IMG/VR virus record: IMGVR_UViG_3300025732_000020
Span: 1 to 64,000 of that record
Length of the DNA: 64,000 nt
Strand: one strand, 5' to 3'
Source of the DNA: a virus
Position numbers and translations under genes: made by a program. A model generated the notes under the pieces. That model did no database searches, was not told the DNA's origin, and saw nothing but the letters and a program-made list of their open reading frames with translations. Of this stretch, positions 2,262-11,522 are shown piece by piece (positions within the stretch are counted from its first letter, which is position 1; the number at the start of each line of letters is the position of its first letter).

Positions 2262-2662
2262 AAATTGTTACCAGGTCTGATATATATGCCCAGATTAAGC
2301 CAAAACATATTTTTTCTCTTAAAGAATTAGCAAATTCCTCAAATAAACATTCCTATTATCAATTCTATGGAAATGTCTCAAAAGGTTATGGTAGTTTTGA
2401 CTTAGATTTAAATGAATCTGTGACTTATTCTGCTCATGCATTGAGATTTACAAACTTTGAAGTATTTAAATTGCTTGAAAAGGCAATAAAAATCGTAGAA
2501 AACACCGAGCAATACACCGAGTATCTATTGAGTGAGACTTTTGGCGAACCTAAATTTATCATAAATCCCCCAGGAACCATAAGATTTTATTCCCAAGACC
2601 TAATTTGTTTTTATAATGGAAAAAGTTGGAGAAAACTTGATAGATCAAATATTCACATTTAA
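2258..2662 (+). CDS. Hypothetical protein
   Basis: ATGA overlap with upstream gene, 134 aa. Confidence 0.7.
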   Translation: MKIVTRSDIYAQIKPKHIFSLKELANSSNKHSYYQFYGNVSKGYGSFDLDLNESVTYSAHALRFTNFEVFKLLEKAIKIVENTEQYTEYLLSETFGEPKFIINPPGTIRFYSQDLICFYNGKSWRKLDRSNIHI

Positions 2663-3446
2663 GTATCCTGGTAGGGAACCTCGGTATTTACATCACTTCT
2701 TAAATGAAAGACCGGATATTTTAGATTATTATATCTATGATATAAATCTAACAACTGGGAGTTTATTATATCTTTCTAAAGGAGGGATTGGGGCCACTAA
2801 GGAACCATATATAGCAAGAATGCATGAGTGGATTAAAACTTCTACAGTTAAATCTACTTTGGAGAGCGTATATAAAACCCGATTTAGAGAAGAGATCGGA
2901 AGATGGAAATATAATAAACTTAAGGAAAATTTTAATGAATATCCAGAGAAATTGAGTAATTGGACTCAATGTGCAGAACTCTACTTATTGTGGGTAGGTT
3001 CAAACTTTACTCATAGGTATAGACTGAATGGCTATGACGGAATATTTTTTCCAACAAAGTTAAAAACTAACGAACTAATTAATGCCTCACGGATAAACCG
3101 TGAGAAAAACCTTCTCTTTAGAGAGGAAGATTTGTTCTCTTTTAAGGAAAGTATTATAAATGATAATGTCATAGTCTATGCTCATCTCCCCAGAGAATTT
3201 GGCGTTTTTGGTGCGGGGTGGATGTGGAATAAAAACAATCTTGAGAGATTTACCAGAGTTATTTCAGAGTTTTCTACTACAAACAAAAAAATATTAATCT
3301 CAGCACAATTTGAACTAAGGGGAAGAATTGATTTAGATTATAGAAAGTATTTCCCAAGTTTTAATCATATCATAGTACCTGAGTTTAAAGAATCTACATC
3401 GTTTCTAGGTTCAAAGAACTCGGAGATATATCTTTTTAATTTTTAA
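2616..3446 (+). CDS. Dam-like DNA adenine methyltransferase fold, catalytic motifs degenerate
   Basis: FKYPG (cf. KW/YxGGK), YDIN, VYAHLP in place of VYxDPPY, KILIS. Confidence 0.55.
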   Translation: MEKVGENLIDQIFTFKYPGREPRYLHHFLNERPDILDYYIYDINLTTGSLLYLSKGGIGATKEPYIARMHEWIKTSTVKSTLESVYKTRFREEIGRWKYNKLKENFNEYPEKLSNWTQCAELYLLWVGSNFTHRYRLNGYDGIFFPTKLKTNELINASRINREKNLLFREEDLFSFKESIINDNVIVYAHLPREFGVFGAGWMWNKNNLERFTRVISEFSTTNKKILISAQFELRGRIDLDYRKYFPSFNHIIVPEFKESTSFLGSKNSEIYLFNF

Positions 3447-3983: not shown

Positions 3984-4406
3984 ATGTATTTTGCAGCAGC
4001 AATTCAGGCCGTAAATGCCGGCCTTAAAAAAAGTAATGAGTTAGGCACCAAAATGAATGTCGCAGTAGTTGATCGCGGCGGTAATCTGGTTGCTTTTGCC
4101 CGTGAAGATGGCGCTTGGGTGGGCAGTGTAGACATCTCGATTAAGAAGGCAAGAACTGCTACTTTTTTTGACATGGAGACTCAAGAAATCGGTAAACTTT
4201 CTCAGCCGGGGGGTAGTCTGTATAATATTGAACATTCTAACAATGGCCTTATCACTTTTCCCGGCGGGATCCCTCTAACTGCACCAGATGGCACGATTCT
4301 TGGTGGGGTAGGTGTTTCTGGCTCGACTGTTGAGGATGATAAAGTTGTTGCTGAGGCTGCAGTTGAAGGATTTAAGACTGTTTTTGTAGAAAATTCCGCA
4401 GAATAG
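3984..4406 (+). CDS. GlcG/HbpS (PduO C-terminal-like) haem-binding protein
   Basis: [14 protein letters not shown]...S..I..KKA.TA and GGIP...GGVGVSGS motifs; TGGTATAAT promoter at 3955-3963. Confidence 0.9.
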
Positions 4407-4439
4407 GTTAAAGATTGTGGGGCTATATGCCCCTTCTAG

Positions 4440-4515
4440 GCCTCTATAGCTCAGTGGCCAGAGCACTCGCCTTGTAAGCGAGCGGTCCTCGGTTCAAATC
4501 CGAGTGGGGGCTCCA
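4440..4515 (+). tRNA. tRNA-Thr(UGU), CCA encoded
   Basis: Cloverleaf; anticodon arm CTCGC-CT TGT AA-GCGAG. Confidence 0.95.
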
Positions 4516-4587
4516 CGGGATGTAGCGCAGCGGTAGCGCGCCTGCTTTGGGAGCAGGATGTCGCAGGTTCGATCCCTGCCATCCCGA
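4516..4587 (+). tRNA. tRNA-Pro(UGG)
   Basis: Cloverleaf; CCTGC-TT TGG GA-GCAGG. Confidence 0.95.
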
Positions 4588-4634
4588 TTTTAAATTTTAA
4601 AGTTTAAAGTATAACATTTAATATTCAGATTACA

Positions 4635-5081
4635 ATGGCAATCAATTACTCCCTCTCAATAGGATCCGTAAAGAAAAGACTCGTAGAAAGAGAGTTTAGC
4701 GATGTGGTTATTGAAGCAAACTTTAGTGTATCGGCATTTTCTGACGCTGTAACCGAGATCAATGGAGATGGCGATGAGGTAATCGTAACCCCTTCCTTTT
4801 CTTATTCATGTAGTGGAACTAGACAATTCCCTGTTAGTGAAATTGATCCTGAAACATTTATCCCATTTGAACAGATTACAAAAGAAACTGTCGTTGAGTG
4901 GCTTCTCGCTGGAGAAGGGGTGGAATCTATAGAAGACTTTTCATATGTAAAGAGTTGTGTTCAGAATGTTGCTCAGAGGATTTATGAATACTCTCAAGAG
5001 GTTCCCGCATTTGTACCTGGTCAAGATCCTTCTGGTTCCTCAGACGCTGAATATGTTCCCACTGAACCGTCAGACGGTTGA
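4635..5081 (+). CDS. Hypothetical acidic phage protein (possibly tail-associated)
   Basis: FIPFEQITKETVVEWL motif; GTTTAAAG motif upstream at 4602. Confidence 0.7.
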   Translation: MAINYSLSIGSVKKRLVEREFSDVVIEANFSVSAFSDAVTEINGDGDEVIVTPSFSYSCSGTRQFPVSEIDPETFIPFEQITKETVVEWLLAGEGVESIEDFSYVKSCVQNVAQRIYEYSQEVPAFVPGQDPSGSSDAEYVPTEPSDG

Positions 5082-5106
5082 CGATCCAAGGTTCTTCTGA
5101 TAGAAT
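5078..5106 (+). promoter_or_regulatory. Sigma70 promoter of the tRNA-Arg/Asn/Gly operon
   Basis: TTGACG-17 nt-TAGAAT with extended -10 TG. Confidence 0.8.
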
Positions 5107-5112
5107 ACTTCT

Positions 5113-5206
5113 ATGAGCAATGAGGGTCCAAACCTCACGTAAGTCTCGCCCCTCCTAAGCCTCTTAATAACTCATAGTTATTGATGCTCAAACCTGGAGG
5201 TCTCTT
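5113..5206 (+). ncRNA. Structured leader RNA with possible pseudoknot
   Basis: TGAGCA/TGCTCA, TGAGG/CCTCA, AATAAC/GTTATT and CCTCC/GGAGG pairings. Confidence 0.5.
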
Positions 5207-5280
<74 letters not shown>

Positions 5281-5388
5281 CTGGAGATCTGGAAATGTCT
5301 GGATCTCTTCTAAATCCTAGGGGGATTCTTCTAGGTCGGGGAATTGATCACCTCCGTTATAGGGGGAGTCCTCTAACACTCCCCACCA
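5281..5388 (+). ncRNA. Four-hairpin spacer RNA ending in a microhelix plus ACCA
   Basis: Hairpins at 5283-5308, 5316-5335, 5337-5356 and 5363-5384, then ACCA. Confidence 0.5.
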
Positions 5389-5389
5389 T

Positions 5390-5461
5390 TCCACAATAGC
5401 TCAGCGGTAGAGTCGGTGACTGTTAATCACTTGGTCCCTGGTTCGAATCCAGGTTGTGGAG
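5390..5461 (+). tRNA. tRNA-Asn(GUU)
   Basis: Cloverleaf; GGTGA-CT GTT AA-TCACT. Confidence 0.95.
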
Positions 5462-5560
5462 TCGGTAGTCGTTAGGCAAACAGCCTAGAAAGACGCCGAG
5501 ATCATCAGATGCCGTTTGGTAGTTTCCATAGTCTGATGTGGTAAAAATTGAAACTACCCT
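5462..5560 (+). ncRNA. Spacer RNA: extended hairpin plus H-type pseudoknot
   Basis: CATCAGA/TCTGATG stem whose loop sequence GGTAGTTTC pairs with downstream GAAACTACC. Confidence 0.55.
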
Positions 5561-5561
5561 T

Positions 5562-5632
5562 GCGGGCATGGTGTAGAGGTAACATCTCAGCCTTCCAAGC
5601 TGCAGTCACCGGTTCGATCCCGGTTGCCCGCT
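5562..5632 (+). tRNA. tRNA-Gly(UCC)
   Basis: Cloverleaf; CAGC-CT TCC AA-GCTG. Confidence 0.93.
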
Positions 5633-5683
5633 TCCCCACAGCATATTGTGGGGGTTCATTTGACCAATAATTATTAAAAAATA

Positions 5684-6565
5684 ATGAAACTTCAAACAAT
5701 TTTTGCCGCTGGTATTGTTGCTGCTACTGTAGTCTCTCCTGCCATGGCTCAAGTCACCAGTGTCACACAATTGCGTGATGTTCAACCTACCGAGTGGTCT
5801 TATCAAGCCATCTCTAACCTGGTATCGCGTTATGGCTGCGTTGCTGGTTTCCCTGATGGTACCTTCCGTCCTGGTCAACCCGCTACTCGTGCTGAACTTG
5901 CCGCTCTGACTAACGCTTGCCTAGATCGCATCACTGAGTTTTACACTGCAGACGACGCTCAACTCGCTGCTGCTCTGCGAGCTGAATTTGCTAAGGAACT
6001 TGGCGCTACTAATGCCCGCATTGCTACTTTGGAAAAAACTGCGGCAAAAAAAGCTCAAGGTGTTGGTAACTACGTCGGTCTGGGTGTGCTGCTGAACAAG
6101 CAAGGTGTTGATGGCGGTGGTTATACCGAGAACCGTACTATCTCTGGCGGTACTCTTCAGGCCCGTTATGCTGTGAAGAACTTTAAGAACCAGAACGCTG
6201 TGTCTGTTCGTCCTTACCTGAATGCCGTTGCTGGTCCTAATAGTGACATTGGTACTGCTGGTGGTGCTATGGTTTCCTATGACTGGAGTATTGCTAAGGC
6301 TAAGTCTGGTGTAAGTGCTGCTAACATCTACGCTGGTGTTGGTTACCAGGTTCCTTTTGCCAATGATACTCAAGCAAACTATCAGTCTGCTATCGGTGAG
6401 AAGGGTCAAGTTGTCCTCGCTCTTGGCGCCGAAGGTCGTATCACTAACTCATTGGTTGGCTTTGCTGATCTGAAGTTCCCTACCACCAACGCTGGTAATG
6501 CCTACGGTGGTTCTGGCGCTCCTTACAGCCCTGTCTTCACCACTGGCCTTGGCTTCAAGTTTTGA
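5684..6565 (+). CDS. SLH-domain outer-membrane beta-barrel protein (Som/cyanobacterial porin-like)
   Basis: Signal peptide; DVQPTEWSYQAI..LV.RYGCVAG.PDGTFRP...TRAE SLH motif; coiled coil; beta-strand C-terminus ending in Phe. Confidence 0.85.
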   Translation: MKLQTIFAAGIVAATVVSPAMAQVTSVTQLRDVQPTEWSYQAISNLVSRYGCVAGFPDGTFRPGQPATRAELAALTNACLDRITEFYTADDAQLAAALRAEFAKELGATNARIATLEKTAAKKAQGVGNYVGLGVLLNKQGVDGGGYTENRTISGGTLQARYAVKNFKNQNAVSVRPYLNAVAGPNSDIGTAGGAMVSYDWSIAKAKSGVSAANIYAGVGYQVPFANDTQANYQSAIGEKGQVVLALGAEGRITNSLVGFADLKFPTTNAGNAYGGSGAPYSPVFTTGLGFKF

Positions 6566-6591
6566 TTAGGATTTCCTAACATAACCTCCAC

Positions 6592-6617
6592 GGGGGCCTT
6601 TACAAGCCCCCATTTTT
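6592..6617 (+). terminator. Rho-independent terminator
   Basis: GGGGGC/GCCCCC stem plus T run. Confidence 0.75.
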
Positions 6618-6651
6618 ATGATAAAGTGATTAAGGAATTTTAAATAGGAAA

Positions 6652-6846
6652 ATGACTGTAACTTCTAACGAAAACGGCCAACAAAATATGTGGGCAAAAG
6701 AACCAACCATGTATTACCATAACTACGGTCAGCAAACTCCTAATGAGTACAAGGAAACTTATAATGGACGCTGGGCTATGGTCGGTATTATTGCTGGGGC
6801 TATTTCTTATGCTCTCACTGGTAACCTCTTCTTCGGAGTAGCTTGA
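6652..6846 (+). CDS. hli: High-light-inducible protein
   Basis: KETYNGRWAMVG chlorophyll-binding motif (ExxNGRxAM) plus TM helix. Confidence 0.92.
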   Translation: MTVTSNENGQQNMWAKEPTMYYHNYGQQTPNEYKETYNGRWAMVGIIAGAISYALTGNLFFGVA

Positions 6847-6848
6847 TA

Positions 6849-6935
6849 GTGGCAGAACTTTTCTACACAGTTACTATTGTAGGGTTTCTGATCCTACTCA
6901 CTAAATCTGTTGAAAACCTTTTGGATACTTACTGA
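6849..6935 (+). CDS. 28-aa hydrophobic peptide
   Basis: GTG-start [28 protein letters not shown] exactly fills the hli-petF gap; its TGA overlaps the petF ATG. Confidence 0.55.
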
Positions 6936-7228
6936 TGGCTACTTACAACATTACTCTTCAATCCCCTGACGGCACTGAGAATACTTTTGAGTGCCCTGAT
7001 GACATGTACATTCTTGATGCTGCTGAGGAGGCGGGTATTGATCTACCTTCTTCTTGCCGTGCTGGTGCTTGTTCTGCTTGTGCGGGTAAACTTATCAGTG
7101 GTCAGGTAGATAATAGTGAACAATCTTTCCTTGATGATGACCAAATGGACGAAGGATTTGTACTCACTTGTGTTGCTTATTCTGTTAGTGACTGTGTGAT
7201 CCTGTCTGAGCAGGAGGAAAATCTTTGA
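6935..7228 (+). CDS. petF: Plant-type [2Fe-2S] ferredoxin
   Basis: [16 protein letters not shown]...LTCVAY. Confidence 0.97.
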
Positions 7229-7250
7229 ATAAGTTTCTTCTCTATCTGCA

Positions 7251-7640
7251 ATGATTAAAAACATTCTCTCTGCAATTGCTACCATTACTCTCTTGCAAAC
7301 TCCCTCATTTGCAAGTAACGTTTCATCACCAAAATCTATTCCAGTGGTAAATTTTAATTCTTTTGCCTCGGGGATGAGTAACAGTAACACCCCTCCGAGC
7401 ATGGGATTGTCCGTGGTAAATATTCCAAATAACATCTCTTGTCGTAGCAAAGCACGTTCTAAATATTTTGAACTTAATGCCCGCAACATGTCAAACGACT
7501 CAGATAACTCCCAATGGGGCTCTATTGGAAGCATGCAGGCATTAGTTTGGTGTCGCGATAGCCAAGCAATTATCGCTATCGCAGGAAACGACTACAACTC
7601 TGTAGCAGAATTACGTGATGAAATCAAAAAAGCGTTCTAA
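7251..7640 (+). CDS. Secreted/periplasmic hypothetical protein
   Basis: Signal peptide ending PSFA. Confidence 0.7.
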   Translation: MIKNILSAIATITLLQTPSFASNVSSPKSIPVVNFNSFASGMSNSNTPPSMGLSVVNIPNNISCRSKARSKYFELNARNMSNDSDNSQWGSIGSMQALVWCRDSQAIIAIAGNDYNSVAELRDEIKKAF

Positions 7641-7768
7641 TGCTAAAGAATATCATCACTTATATTCGCTGGGGTAATCTACCCCCAGAAGAAGAGAGCA
7701 AATTACAAATGCTCTCTTTAAAGGAGATCTTTAAGTCTCCGTACCTCACTCGCAAATTTTACGGTTAA
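7640..7768 (+). CDS. Small hypothetical protein (42 aa)
   Basis: TAATG overlap with upstream gene; fills the gap to the second hli. Confidence 0.5.
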   Translation: MLKNIITYIRWGNLPPEEESKLQMLSLKEIFKSPYLTRKFYG

Positions 7769-7773
7769 TTATC

Positions 7774-7896
7774 ATGAAAAAGTTTGGTTTTACTCCCGAA
7801 GCAGAACTCCTCAACTCCCGTCTTGCAATGATTGGGTTTGTAGCAGCTGTAGGCTCGTATCTTGTTACTGGGCAAATTATCCCTGGTATTTGGTGA
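7774..7896 (+). CDS. hli: High-light-inducible protein (second copy, missed by ORF track)
   Basis: MKKFGFTPEAELLNSRLAMIGFVAAVGSYLVTGQIIPGIW. Confidence 0.93.
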   Translation: MKKFGFTPEAELLNSRLAMIGFVAAVGSYLVTGQIIPGIW

Positions 7897-7916
7897 GACT
7901 AAGTTCTCATTATTAC

Positions 7917-7941
7917 TCCTAGTTCAACTCTAGGATTTTTT
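7917..7941 (+). terminator. Rho-independent terminator
   Basis: TCCTAG/CTAGGA stem plus T6, abutting tRNA-Ser. Confidence 0.65.
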
Positions 7942-8025
7942 GGAAAGGTGGCCGAGTGGTTGATGGCAGCAGTCTTGAAAACTGCCGTGTGATGAGCACC
8001 GTGGGTTCGAATCCCACCCTTTCCG
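7942..8025 (+). tRNA. tRNA-Ser(UGA)
   Basis: GCAGT-CT TGA AA-ACTGC; long variable arm. Confidence 0.95.
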
Positions 8026-8069
8026 TTGTTTAAAGTTTATACTGAAGATAGTTTATAAAAGTCAGTATA

Positions 8070-8516
8070 ATGGCCATTTCTCTCCGCGCTCCAGACGTAA
8101 GACTGGCCGTATTAGAAGAAAAATTAGATGTATATGAGGAACTCTCAAGAGAGATGCTCGCCAAGTTAGAGACTGCGGTTGATAAAATTTCAGAAGCAAA
8201 TCAGAATGTTGCGCGGATTTTAGTCCGCCATGAAGAGCGTTTAGACCAAACGCTCCAATCTGATGCAGCAATTATGAAACTCCTTGATGAGTTAAAGGAA
8301 CAAAGAAAACAGGACATGGTTCGATTAAATGAAGAGCTAAAGGGTATAAAAGAAGATATTGAATCTGCGCATAGTAAAGTCTCTGACCTCTCCAGATACA
8401 GATGGTTAATAGTTGGCGCGACACTTGTTCTTTCATTTGTTATATCTGAGAGTAATTTACTCTCGAACATGTTCAGTACTACCTCACAAGATACTCATAT
8501 AGAAAGGTCAAAGTGA
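8070..8516 (+). CDS. Coiled-coil protein with C-terminal TM helix (holin/XhlA-like candidate)
   Basis: Heptad-rich N-terminus, RWLIVGATLVLSFVI TM segment; GTTTAAAG motif at 8028. Confidence 0.55.
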   Translation: MAISLRAPDVRLAVLEEKLDVYEELSREMLAKLETAVDKISEANQNVARILVRHEERLDQTLQSDAAIMKLLDELKEQRKQDMVRLNEELKGIKEDIESAHSKVSDLSRYRWLIVGATLVLSFVISESNLLSNMFSTTSQDTHIERSK

Positions 8517-8600
8517 GGGGAAAACGGGTAGGATTTATACATAAAAACGTCTGGAAAAGTGGTATAATACAGTGCGTATCAGTAGATTTCCCAGGTCACT

Positions 8601-8762
8601 ATGCTATTTTTCTTGTCAAAGACTCCACCGGCACAGTTATTCCCGTGGATTCACGAGATACTTCATACCTATAGGTGGGGAATTGTAGGGACTCTAAGTT
8701 TCCTATTGATATTTGTCCCAATCTATGGTATAATGTACATACACCAGGATTCTGGTAAATGA
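8601..8762 (+). CDS. Small membrane protein (alternative overlapping ORF 8513..8674)
   Basis: RWGIVGTLSFLLIFVPIYGIMYIH hydrophobic segment. Confidence 0.4.
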   Translation: MLFFLSKTPPAQLFPWIHEILHTYRWGIVGTLSFLLIFVPIYGIMYIHQDSGK

Positions 8763-8766
8763 GTTC

Positions 8767-8838
8767 GGGACTGTCGCCTATTGGTTAAGGCCCACTGCTT
8801 ATAACGGTGTGAACGGAGTTCAATTCTCCGCAGTCCTA
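8767..8838 (+). tRNA. tRNA-Ile(UAU)
   Basis: CACTG-CT TAT AA-CGGTG; acceptor GGGACTG/CAGTCCT. Confidence 0.9.
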
Positions 8839-8840
8839 TT

Positions 8841-8885
8841 GGGTAGTCTGCGCTGGAAAGATAAACCAGAATGCCGCTACCCACC
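8841..8885 (+). ncRNA. Small acceptor-stem-like hairpin RNA
   Basis: GGGTAGT/GCTACCC-ACC outer stem with inner CTGG/CCAG hairpin. Confidence 0.4.
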
Positions 8886-8886
8886 T

Positions 8887-8959
8887 GCTCCTTTAGCAAT
8901 CTGGTGAATGCAATCGACTCATAATCGATGTGAGGTGGGTTCGATCCCCTCAAGGAGCA
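8887..8959 (+). tRNA. tRNA with CAU anticodon (elongator Met, or Ile2)
   Basis: ATCGA-CT CAT AA-TCGAT; acceptor GCTCCTT/AAGGAGC. Confidence 0.9.
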
Positions 8960-8963
8960 CCTC

Positions 8964-9046
8964 GCGTGAGTGGCGGAATTGGTAGACGCCCAGGTTTTAG
9001 GTACCTGTGTCCTTGCGACGTGGAGGTTCAAGTCCTCTCTCACGCA
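8964..9046 (+). tRNA. tRNA-Leu(UAG)
   Basis: CAGGT-TT TAG GT-ACCTG; long variable arm. Confidence 0.93.
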
Positions 9047-9078
9047 TTTAGGTTAAAGATCTTTATGTAGGTAATCCT

Positions 9079-9387
9079 ATGTTGTCCACGCAAATAAGAC
9101 TAAGACTAGAGGCTATCGCGCAAAAAATTGCAAATCACGAAGCGGTAACCTTTGAAGAAATGCAATGGGCCCAGAAATGGGCAGATAATAATCGCTCAGC
9201 TGCCTCGATCTTGAATAAAGCTCGTAGGGTATCAATCAATGGAGTACCCGAAAAAGACTCACTCGATGAGTTTATGAACGATCTAGATTTAGGTGATCCA
9301 GATCCATCTAATCATCTTATCGGACCCCAAGACCCTGACACTCTTGCTAAATGGTTTAAAGCTCCACCATGGCTGAAAAACGACTGA
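9079..9387 (+). CDS. Hypothetical cyanophage protein
   Basis: 102-aa ORF with GGTTAAAG motif upstream. Confidence 0.75.
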   Translation: MLSTQIRLRLEAIAQKIANHEAVTFEEMQWAQKWADNNRSAASILNKARRVSINGVPEKDSLDEFMNDLDLGDPDPSNHLIGPQDPDTLAKWFKAPPWLKND

Positions 9388-9528
9388 TCACAGAGGAAGA
9401 GTTCGATAGGCTATCGGAGATGGCTCAAGAGTTAAAACTCCGTGAGTTGTTTGAAGAACCATCTTCATTTGAGGATGAACCAGAAGAATAATTATCTGGT
9501 ATAATAATAGAGTCTCTACGAGACTTAC

Positions 9529-9553
9529 GGGAGATTAGCTCAGTGGTAGAGCA
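9529..9553 (+). pseudogene. Orphan tRNA 5' fragment (acceptor 5' strand plus D arm)
   Basis: GGGAGATTAGCTCAGTGGTAGAGCA, a near-copy of the tRNA-Val 5' end at 10000. Confidence 0.75.
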
Positions 9554-9588
9554 ACTCATAAATAAAAAAAAATGCTCTACTAAAATTA

Positions 9589-10020
9589 ATGAAACAAACC
9601 GCCACTTGTCTAAATTGCTTTAAAACGTTTGCTTACAGTCCTTATCGTCAAAAAGGTAAGTATTGCAATAACAAATGTCAACAAGAATATACAAGAAATC
9701 AGTATATTACTAATTGGAAAGAAGGTTTAATTTCAGGAGGTTCTTCTTACAATTTATCTCAATATGTAAGAAATTATCTTTTAGAGGAAGCAAAATACAA
9801 GTGCTCTAAATGTGATTGGTTCGGAACTAATATTCATACTGGTAAAGTTCCATTAGAAATTGATCATATCGATGATGACCCATTTAATCACTCACCAAGC
9901 AATTTACAGGTTCTTTGCCCTAATTGCCACTCTCTTAAAACTCAACCACCAAATAAGAGTAAAGGTGGAAGATACAAAAATGGTGGTCATCCAAAATACG
10001 GGCGATTAGCTCAGCGGTAG
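9589..10020 (+). mobile_element. HNH homing endonuclease
   Basis: CxxC zinc motifs; LEIDHID...N...NLQVLCPNCHS; last codons overlap tRNA-Val. Confidence 0.9.
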
Positions 10021-10072
10021 TAGCGCCATCCTTACAAGATGGATGTCACTGGTTCGAATCCAGTATCGCCCA
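10000..10072 (+). tRNA. tRNA-Val(UAC)
   Basis: CCATC-CT TAC AA-GATGG; acceptor GGGCGAT/ATCGCCC. Confidence 0.93.
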
Positions 10073-10117
10073 TGTTAGGATTTAATAACATCTTAATCAA
10101 CAGTTTAAAGTAATCGT

Positions 10118-10303
10118 ATGGAAAATATCACCTTTTCTGATAGTATTAAAATCAAACCCGGCGGTAGTATCAGCATTTCCGGCGATGCTAAAGCCACTAT
10201 TATCATTGACAACGAGGTCATTACCCTATCGGCCTCTACCCCACTCGAGGAGTATTGCAAGCGATTTCCCTCCGCCTTAGAATGCAGAGAATACGATGTG
10301 TAA
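10118..10303 (+). CDS. CP12-like protein (C-terminal CP12 motif only)
   Basis: TPLEEYCKRFPSALECREYDV matches the CP12 C-terminal C-x8-C motif. Confidence 0.65.
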   Translation: MENITFSDSIKIKPGGSISISGDAKATIIIDNEVITLSASTPLEEYCKRFPSALECREYDV

Positions 10304-10310
10304 ATGACCC

Positions 10311-10340
10311 TTGACATGGCACCCCTCCCTGGAGTATGAT
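10311..10340 (+). promoter_or_regulatory. Sigma70 promoter
   Basis: TTGACA-18 nt-TATGAT. Confidence 0.7.
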
Positions 10341-10362
10341 TACTCTAGGGATTTTTTTTGCC

Positions 10363-10888
10363 ATGAACATTTTCTTTTCTCGACTACAATCCTCAAGTTG
10401 CTGCTGAGTATCACTGTGATAAGCATGTCAACAAGATGATTGTTGAGCATCTCCAGATGATGAGTGTAGCACTTGCTCACCATGGATTTGATCCTGCTCG
10501 GAAGAAAGACGGGGAGTTTTACAAAGTTCGTGGGTTTAAAAACCATCCTTGTACCCTATGGGTTAAAGAGTCTTCACTTAATTTTATTTGGACTTGGAAA
10601 CTTACCTGGCATCTTTGTGAAGAATTCAAAACCCGTTATGGCAAAGAACATTCTGGTAAAGATAGTCTGAGATCTATTAACCTTGAGGCCGTAATGTTTG
10701 ATTATCCAGATGTTGGTTATACTTCTCCGGCTCAAGCAATGCCAGACTTCTGTAAAGTTCCTCATAACCCGGTTAAAGCCTACCGTAACTACTACAACTG
10801 GACTAAGTGGCGCTTTGCTACTTGGAAGACTGAAGAACCAGATTGGTGGGCACCGGCTTGTTGTCTGGAGGCAAAAGATGAATACTAA
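10363..10888 (+). CDS. Pyrimidine-dimer DNA glycosylase/endonuclease V-like protein, with an apparent +1 frameshift at 10375-10378
   Basis: MNIFF | LDYNPQVAAEYHCDKHVNKM...HPCTLW...AMPD...VKAYRNYY; N-terminus lies in a different frame from the rest. Confidence 0.8.
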
Positions 10889-11522
10889 ATACTGTCTTAT
10901 TGGTGATCTACATGGAAGAGTGGACACTTTGGATAAAATTTTAGATAGATCGAGTGGATATAAATATATCTTTATGGGAGATATAATCCACCACAAGCCG
11001 TTCTTCCGAAGATCTAAGCGTACTTCTCCACTGCGGATGTTAAGTAAGGTCAAAAAGTTAGTAGATCAAGGCGATGCCACTCTCATCCTTGGAAATAACG
11101 AAAACTATATTCTCAAAAACCTACTACTCCCAGAAGAAAATATACTTCAAAAAGAAGTTAAGTATACCCTCTCATGTCTTAGAGACTTATCTCTTGATGA
11201 TAGACTTTCATATCTCCATTGGTTGACTACATCTCCGTTGACACTTGAATTTGACTCGTATGGCAGAACTTATCGTTGCGCCCATGCTTACTACAATCCT
11301 AGTTATACCTCTGAAACAAGAAACTCAGTACTTACTGGGATCGGTTACCCTTGGTTTAAGTTAGATAAGTTGGAAGATCATATAAGACCAGCAGCTGAAT
11401 ATTTCTTTGGTCATTATGGTTACCCTTATTTCCGTAAAAATCTTCACATTATCGACGCCACCAACTTCGAAGGAGTTGGAGTCTACTATACCGATCGTGA
11501 AGAGTTTTTAATTTACTACTAA
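10878..11522 (+). CDS. Calcineurin-like metallophosphoesterase
   Basis: IGDLHG, GDIIH, GNNE, HA and FGH motifs; probable start MNTKYC at 10878. Confidence 0.85.
   Translation: MNTKYCLIGDLHGRVDTLDKILDRSSGYKYIFMGDIIHHKPFFRRSKRTSPLRMLSKVKKLVDQGDATLILGNNENYILKNLLLPEENILQKEVKYTLSCLRDLSLDDRLSYLHWLTTSPLTLEFDSYGRTYRCAHAYYNPSYTSETRNSVLTGIGYPWFKLDKLEDHIRPAAEYFFGHYGYPYFRKNLHIIDATNFEGVGVYYTDREEFLIYY

Follow-up and report, generated by a model that had tools for sequence, protein, structure and literature searches.

How can a free-standing endonuclease gene enter a tRNA gene of a phage without depriving that phage of the tRNA? Homing endonuclease genes within phage tRNA clusters are already known from T4 and T5, and entry that does not destroy an essential, conserved target has been documented mainly for genes borne by introns or inteins. 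Here, the question is raised by a locus in a viral DNA stretch of 64,000 nucleotides, positions 1 to 64,000 of the IMG/VR record IMGVR_UViG_3300025732_000020 (in the following called the window), where a small HNH gene is preceded by the 5' half of a tRNA gene and runs into a second, complete one.

The source record is a 135-kb IMG/VR virus that is 84% complete. Its DNA polymerase region is ~70% identical at the nucleotide level to cyanophage S-TIM5 and its relatives, and by this measure the phage of the window is a TIM5-like cyanomyovirus, unrelated to the T4-like cyanophages. In S-TIM5, the tRNA-Val gene lies immediately 3' of talC and an HNH gene of the window type is lacking. The 'endonuclease' gp175 of S-TIM5, encoded between tRNA-Val and cp12, was considered as a homologue of the window HNH and rejected as unrelated (BLASTP E 0.84). 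Further copies (paralogues) of the window HNH were not found in the 135-kb genome.

The locus is built from the following parts:

9497..9505, plus strand: extended -10-like element TGGTATAAT, read from the sequence, 5' of the stub
9529..9553, plus strand: orphan tRNA 5' half (the stub), recognized by the direct repeat and by sibling comparison
9544..9582, plus strand: hairpin with 5' arm 9544-9553 (TGGTAGAGCA), loop 9554-9572 (19 nt) and 3' arm 9573-9582 (TGCTCTACTA)
9557..9564, plus strand: late-promoter-like octamer within the hairpin loop, CATAAATA, which differs by a single mismatch from TATAAATA, the late promoter of T4
9589..10020, plus strand: free-standing HNH endonuclease gene of 143 aa, with an N-terminal Cys4 finger and an HNH core
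10000..10072, plus strand: intact chimeric tRNA-Val(TAC), found by ARAGORN; Rfam tRNA 63.5 bits

The arrangement is best read as a mobile HNH homing cassette that has inserted into the tRNA-Val gene of a TIM5-like cyanomyovirus, stranding the resident 5' half, while the gene was completed by the copy that the cassette carries. From the comparisons described below, we regard this reading as likely.

The two tRNA ends form a direct repeat of 24 nt (9526-9549 and 9997-10020, 22/24 identical) at a spacing of 471 nt, and the insert of ~470 nt is bounded by this repeat of ~25 nt. The stub consists of a 7-nt acceptor strand, TA, the D-arm GCTC-AGTGGTA-GAGC and then A (position 26), and no anticodon arm follows it. 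Since 23 of its 25 nucleotides are identical to the 5' half of the tRNA-Val of the sibling contig L080, it is not a chance look-alike; judged by this match, the stub is a remnant of the resident tRNA-Val. At position 4 the stub has an A, whereas the 3' strand of the live tRNA pairs with C4, and this discrepancy may reflect either a mutation of the stub, a later compensatory change or a patchy conversion tract.

The live gene shares its 5' end with the HNH gene. The ORF ends in ...GRLAQR and the stop codon TAG, and the overlap amounts to 21 nt, the last six codons plus the stop being positions 1-21 of the tRNA. The stop (10018-10020) is located in the D-loop and is followed by a second TAG (10021-10023).

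Several other readings of these elements were discarded. The 'TAC' that precedes both repeat copies was considered as an older cassette end; none of the retrieved loci contains a relevant match to the 16 nt 5' of the stub, and the trinucleotide is treated as chance. A group I intron was sought in 4000-11000, where Rfam gave no group I match at E <= 10. An intron-encoded gene is also rejected, with only 35 nt from the stub to the ATG and a downstream tRNA that is complete by itself.

The most direct view of the event comes from the relatives. Syntenic contigs were sought via the 102-aa protein encoded just upstream (9079-9387), and six siblings without the HNH gene were obtained (L080, L081, L083-L086). 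Each has one intact tRNA-Val in the gene order ORF102, ORF40, tRNA-Val, cp12 and a Pyr_excise-like gene, and a second tRNA 5' half is absent from all six. The original prediction that the HNH gene was inserted into a tRNA gene is borne out by these empty sites. The tRNA-Val of L080 and L081 starts with GGGAGAT, as does the stub, and that of L083-L086 with GGGCGAT, as does the live gene. The siblings furthermore encode a 51-codon ORF (MNMGLLSKQDYDRVIEALEYY..., L080:1662-1811), the stop TAG of which is formed by positions 8-10 of tRNA-Val. In the window (9492-9528), most of this ORF is deleted and it remains only from GGTATAATAA onward. A similar small ORF is located 5' of the tRNA-Val of the T4-like phage S-SRM01.

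The HNH-less siblings have retained the TATAAT of the element TGGTATAAT at the corresponding position. By inference the element may act as a promoter of the host type from which tRNA-Val is transcribed; a sigma-70 consensus promoter scan did not list it, and a -35 hexamer is absent.

The arrangement of stub, HNH gene and tRNA is genuine and not an assembly artefact, since 9078-10045 is covered, with 15 mismatches, by one contig of 1651 nt from another study's run. In the same runs as the HNH-carrying arrangement, HNH-less tRNA-Val ends co-occur. These runs were examined as Logan contigs, which report presence only and neither a transcription start nor an expression level. Contigs from RNA libraries include one L007-type copy and one L082-type sibling, which does not show transcription.

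Among syntenic relatives, the HNH gene is present or absent at one and the same locus, in the window versus its siblings as well as in L015 versus S-SRM01. The siblings may have lost the cassette via recombination between the repeats, rather than the window phage having gained it, yet such a loss would still need an earlier insertion.

The protein itself belongs to a recognizable family. Pfam HNH (PF01844) matches it with E 3.1e-5 (24.5 bits versus a curated cut-off of 21.4), and PHROG HNH families match the ORF as well, phrog_1271 'HNH endonuclease' with E 1.9e-17. Across 14 family members, one of which is the window copy, no variation is seen at C72, C75, D92-H93-I94-D95, N100, N105 and C110-P111-N112-C113; H114, also present in the window copy, is nearly invariant (at least 90% of the sequences). 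The dN/dS values against clade members are 0.13-0.15. This suggests that the window HNH is under purifying selection with its active site intact, as would be expected for a working protein.

Using tblastn and IMG/VR scans, 69 related loci were identified, and 37 of these have a downstream tRNA that is overlapped by the end of the ORF or lies at most 15 nt from it. All 21 loci with at least 76% amino acid identity have their ORF end 6-21 nt inside tRNA-Val. Most of these 21 are positioned 42 nt after tRNA-Asn, on contigs related to the T4-like Synechococcus phages S-SRM01 and DSL-LC03, and the carriers of close homologues are S-SRM01-like Kyanoviridae. Distant members adjoin or overlap tRNAs of other types (Thr, Met, Asp, Phe, Gln), such as the 43% identical homologue of a T5-like coliphage, which adjoins tRNA-Thr. 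In the cultured T4-like phage RN05-S (L001, PV261924.1), the order is tRNA-Asn, HNH, tRNA-Val; its HNH gene (L001:2758-3171, ~109693-110106) encodes 137 aa with 61% identity and is unannotated in GenBank. The homologues of the MA01 type and of DSL-LC03 appeared to be tRNA-free according to the GenBank annotation, which was dismissed after ARAGORN found unannotated tRNAs beside them. These loci define a family of small HNH enzymes that are probably specific for tRNA genes.

Within this family, the window copy is close to genes of an unrelated phage group. Its ORF is 88% identical at the nucleotide level to the copies in L007 and L014, which are T4-like contigs of the S-SRM01 type, whereas the flanks of the window reach only 71-84% nucleotide identity with its own siblings. 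Apart from the cassette, L007-type contigs have nothing in common with the genome of the window; L014 and L015 also share with it a porin-gene region, homologous to 5671-6601. The 88% identity to T4-like copies and the exact TATAAATA in their hairpin loops support the predicted import from a T4-like cyanophage, and it is very probable from these comparisons that the HNH gene was picked up from this group.

The tRNA-Val of the window is composed of two types of sequence. Positions 1-26 are identical to the HNH-linked allele of L020 (26/26), and positions 44-73 agree at 29/30 with the HNH-less L080 versus 21-24/30 with HNH-linked alleles. Since the segments match different alleles, the right junction of the insert is located inside the tRNA. 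It had been proposed that the HNH element rebuilds its tRNA target, and a chimeric gene with a donor-type 5' end (1-26) and a resident-type 3' part (44-73) speaks for this; the chimera is compatible with a short conversion tract. The closest HNH-linked alleles have an extra D-loop base (GGTAG[T/C]AGCG versus GGTAGAGYG), and in the window this is an extra T in GGTAGTAGCG. Such a nucleotide might possibly represent an immunity change, against which counts that it is absent from the HNH-linked alleles L019/22, L021/26 and RN05-S.

A passive transfer has to be weighed here, in which the HNH gene together with the tRNA 5' segment was moved by ordinary or illegitimate recombination and no target was cut, the HNH having another role or none. 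We consider this unlikely. The same family is found at or in tRNA genes of T4-like, TIM5-like and T5-like phages, the HNH gene is sporadic among close relatives and its similarity across phage families exceeds that of the flanks between siblings, and purifying selection is combined with an intact active site; taken together, this pattern is the standard signature of active homing genes. What speaks for a passive event is the position of the junctions in sequence common to all tRNAs (GGTAGAG, the tRNA body), which could itself promote recombination.

Upstream of the HNH start, the stub takes part in a second structure. Its D-loop and D-stem constitute the 5' arm of a hairpin of 10 bp, including one G-U pair, the stem of which ends 6 nt before the HNH ATG. 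RNA folding reproduced the predicted pairing of the orphan half with 9573-9582: the hairpin is the minimum-free-energy fold, with -13.6 kcal/mol for 9526-9600, z = -3.0 and 1/200 shuffles as good. A hairpin precedes the ATG in all clade members, at a distance of 5-9 nt. Over 14 distinct loci, 91.6% of the cells are paired, with one pair switching between GC (7) and AU (5) and others between UG/CG/UA and AU/GU/GC, and slid-register controls bring the pairing down to 20-51%. Distant homologues display the same design with unrelated arm sequences, some of them with an AGGAG ribosome-binding sequence in the 3' arm.

Since the same design is present in distant homologues and loci, the hairpin belongs to the cassette and predates the insertion in the window. 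Loci that lack an orphan half have it too; in L007 and RN05-S, for instance, it comes immediately after tRNA-Asn. The idea that the orphan 5' half was reused as a regulatory hairpin is therefore correct in that the D-arm of the stub forms the 5' arm, but the hairpin is older than the orphan and arrived with the cassette. In the tRNA-Val-linked clade, the 5' arm ((T/G)(A/G)GTAGAG..) resembles the D-loop and D-stem of a tRNA, and in the window and in L014 it is supplied by the D-arm of the stub itself. The crossover was probably located within the GGTAGAG that is common to the D-arm of the stub and the 5' arm of the cassette. A Shine-Dalgarno sequence is absent in and near the 3' arm of the window, and a translational mask is therefore argued only from the position of the hairpin.

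A stable, conserved hairpin within a polycistronic tRNA region could also, with no translational mask involved, separate the HNH/tRNA unit from the genes upstream of it, either as a transcription terminator or as a site of RNase processing, especially as RNA processing is frequent in phage tRNA clusters. This appears improbable, slightly more so than a passive transfer. There is no T-run after the 3' arm, the next bases being AAAATTAATG, and the hairpin was not called by a terminator scan. Moreover, it is always situated 5-9 nt before an ATG and its loop contains the late-promoter octamer, a layout that is familiar from I-TevI-type control in T4.

The octamer CATAAATA in the loop is, as the original prediction stated, close to the T4 late promoter, and it fits the cyanomyovirus consensus NATAAATA. 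In T4-like cyanophages, late promoters of the form NATAAATA are read with gp55 (PMC2984593). An exact TATAAATA is found within the loop of 12 of the 13 other distinct sequences of alignment A1, at a distance of ~29 nt from the ATG, and L019 has TAAATAAA in its place. Within the window, TATAAATA is found at chance level (5 found, 5.4 expected). A different motif, GTTTAAAG, recurs there with a four-fold enrichment (14 found, 3.5 expected; 0/100 shuffles reach 14), for example at 4602, 8028, 10103 and 34900. The one site examined, 10103-10110, lies 7 nt before the ATG of cp12 (10118). GTTTAAAG may serve the TIM5-like phage as a promoter or translation signal of its own.

The sigma factor gp55 (phrog_234) was matched in RN05-S (E 3e-66) and S-SRM01 (E 2e-71), and gave no match in the genome of the window (84% complete) or in the complete S-TIM5. 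Because gp55 was not found, a promoter-driven release of the HNH mRNA is doubtful in the window phage. The loop promoter has probably drifted to CATAAATA with a lengthened A-run, and the late-promoter half of the control is probably orphaned or inactive in this phage. A follow-up paper on TIM5 contains nothing on promoters. A hairpin with a T4 late promoter that has been carried into a phage without the matching sigma factor bears on the fate of selfish genes after they have crossed between lineages.

The insertion in the window has counterparts elsewhere. The T4-like contigs L014 and L015 contain a full stub, GGGGCGATTAACTCAGCGGTAGAGT, before the hairpin, followed by the HNH gene and tRNA-Val. 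Upstream, S-SRM01 shares the genes of these contigs, and its one tRNA-Val is intact and starts exactly at the place of their stub. L014/L015 thus appear to be an independent second case of insertion, with S-SRM01 as the HNH-less counterpart. In L020 the stub is internally deleted and only GGGCGATTA plus AAGTAGAG are left; in L023-25 it is absent, and the upstream coding sequence resembles that of L014/15. Placed next to each other, these loci suggest a series of stub decay, from full (L014/15) via internally deleted (L020) to absent (L023-25).

A different enzyme is found at this position in the sibling L082 (IMGVR_UViG_3300022200_002801, 2600-3190). After a stub, GGGAGATTAGCTCA.., this contig encodes an HNH protein of 175 aa that is 27% identical to that of the window (E 4e-5), has an N-terminal helix-turn-helix-like part and overlaps its own tRNA-Val by 49 nt. 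The tRNA is non-canonical (acceptor GCCCGAT, T-loop GGCGGAA), was missed by ARAGORN and scores 32.8 bits with Rfam tRNA. In the window, in L014/15 and in L082, the left junction falls right after the 3' strand of the D-stem, at tRNA position ~25/26. This position in tRNA-Val seems to have been used repeatedly, and by two types of HNH gene. As a separate observation, a 53%-identical HNH gene directly follows the same odd tRNA 3' end as that of L082 in L028-L032.

That the stub is the remnant of a separate upstream tRNA which lost its 3' part, with the HNH gene in an ordinary spacer, is very improbable: most T4-like carriers do have the cassette between a whole tRNA-Asn and tRNA-Val, but siblings with the same flanks have one tRNA only, a tRNA-Val that matches the stub, the stub of L015 starts exactly where the single tRNA-Val of S-SRM01 starts, and three separate junctions share the tRNA position ~25/26.

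For the insertion of a homing cassette, the following course can be proposed. The cassette consists of a 5' hairpin arm that resembles a D-arm, a loop containing a late promoter of the T4 type, the 3' arm and the HNH ORF, the 3' end of which provides the first ~26 nt of tRNA-Val. During co-infection, the enzyme would cut or nick HNH-less tRNA-Val alleles in or near the D-arm, and repair would copy the cassette, its tRNA-like ends serving as short homology arms. As the comparisons show, the left junction lies at tRNA position ~25/26, in the GGTAGAG common to D-arm and 5' arm, and the right one between positions ~26 and ~44 of the tRNA.

On read-through transcripts, the hairpin would mask the ribosome landing site, as suggested by I-TevI and SegB. 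From T4 precedents it can further be expected that RNase P, acting at the 5' end of the tRNA, strips the last six codons and the stop from the ORF. Since this cut removes the ORF end, tRNA maturation and HNH translation would be mutually exclusive. Late transcripts of T4-like carriers that depend on gp55 and start within the loop would be free of the 5' arm and would be translatable. In the window phage, the HNH gene is probably mostly silent, or expressed only on co-infection with a T4-like phage. Read-through RNA, which, as a guess from the sequence, may start at TGGTATAAT, would still be subject to the mask and would still lose the stop codon to RNase P.

More tentatively, and with somewhat more doubt than trust, the cassette may represent a distinct, intron-less type of homing into the interior of a tRNA. 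It would use its own tRNA-derived arms to enter the tRNA-Val of unrelated phage families and would rebuild the gene at once. Decay of the stub, and loss of the repeat that excision requires, would then lock the cassette in. One and the same stretch of ~10 nt would function both as an arm in recombination and as the mask, and the additional D-loop base would confer immunity to re-cutting.

Among known systems, SegB of T4 is similar in several aspects. It is a free-standing selfish endonuclease gene among phage tRNA genes that is absent from close relatives, it targets a conserved tRNA-gene sequence, and a hairpin is predicted to occlude its translation start (PMC2330249). Its ORF ends at the 5' processing site of the next tRNA, and maturation of this tRNA damages the mRNA; hairpin occlusion of the start and tRNA processing near the stop codon have accordingly been proposed for SegB (PMC2330249). 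In contrast to the enzyme described here, SegB is a GIY-YIG and not an HNH endonuclease, recognizes a T-loop motif and lies between tRNA genes, none of which is split. An orphan half, a rebuilt tRNA end or a late promoter adjacent to the hairpin have not been reported for SegB.

F-TflI, F-TflII as well as F-TflIV of T5 are of the HNH type and are encoded in a phage tRNA cluster, as far as the work of Akulenko et al. (2004) is cited in PMC2330249 and PMC10644984. The 43%-identical homologues of the window HNH are encoded by T5-like phages, which does not imply identity with one of the named F-Tfl enzymes. To our knowledge, neither a tRNA-splitting insertion nor a duplicated 5' half has been described for the F-Tfl enzymes.

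The control of I-TevI, I-TevII, I-TevIII (all of T4) and of MobE of Aeh1 is also similar, since a hairpin covers the start on early read-through RNA and a late (or middle) promoter in or beside the hairpin yields RNA without the 5' arm; relatives of the cassette likewise carry TATAAATA in the loop. The I-Tev enzymes are, however, intron-encoded and of the GIY-YIG or HNH type, whereas the window locus has no intron and its phage no detectable gp55.

Integrase-driven islands and prophages enter tRNA genes as well and bring a copy of the displaced part, which results in a direct repeat of tRNA sequence. Common to both is mobile DNA in a tRNA gene with the tRNA kept functional. These islands depend on site-specific recombinases and replace the 3' end, whereas in the window an endonuclease gene of an insert of only ~470 nt has replaced the 5' end (1-26). 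What sets the cassette apart from known systems, as far as can be judged from the compared loci, is its apparent insertion into the interior of a tRNA gene, with a duplicate of the 5' end that restores this gene, along with the decaying stubs, the repeated use of one position by two HNH types and the transfer between T4-like and TIM5-like phages.

The series of public sequences points to an intron-free solution to the opening question, in which the element brings along a replacement for the 5' end of the tRNA it splits. This natural series runs from empty sites via fresh insertions with full stubs to stubs in decay, and it includes another endonuclease at the same position as well as a transfer between two unrelated cyanophage families. 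It also provides a concrete candidate target, the D-arm of tRNA-Val.

Some minor observations concern the surroundings of the locus. The cp12 homologue of the window (10118-10303) matches Pfam CP12 over its C-terminal 22 residues only (E 1e-6), and its place is maintained in the sibling contigs. At 5151-5201, just 5' of a tRNA-Arg, an Rfam abiF RNA motif is found with 39.4 bits versus a gathering score of 37. Short acceptor-stem-like mini-helices occur between tRNA genes at 8841-8885 and 5363-5388, and given the stub at 9529-9553, these could be remnants of broken tRNA genes.
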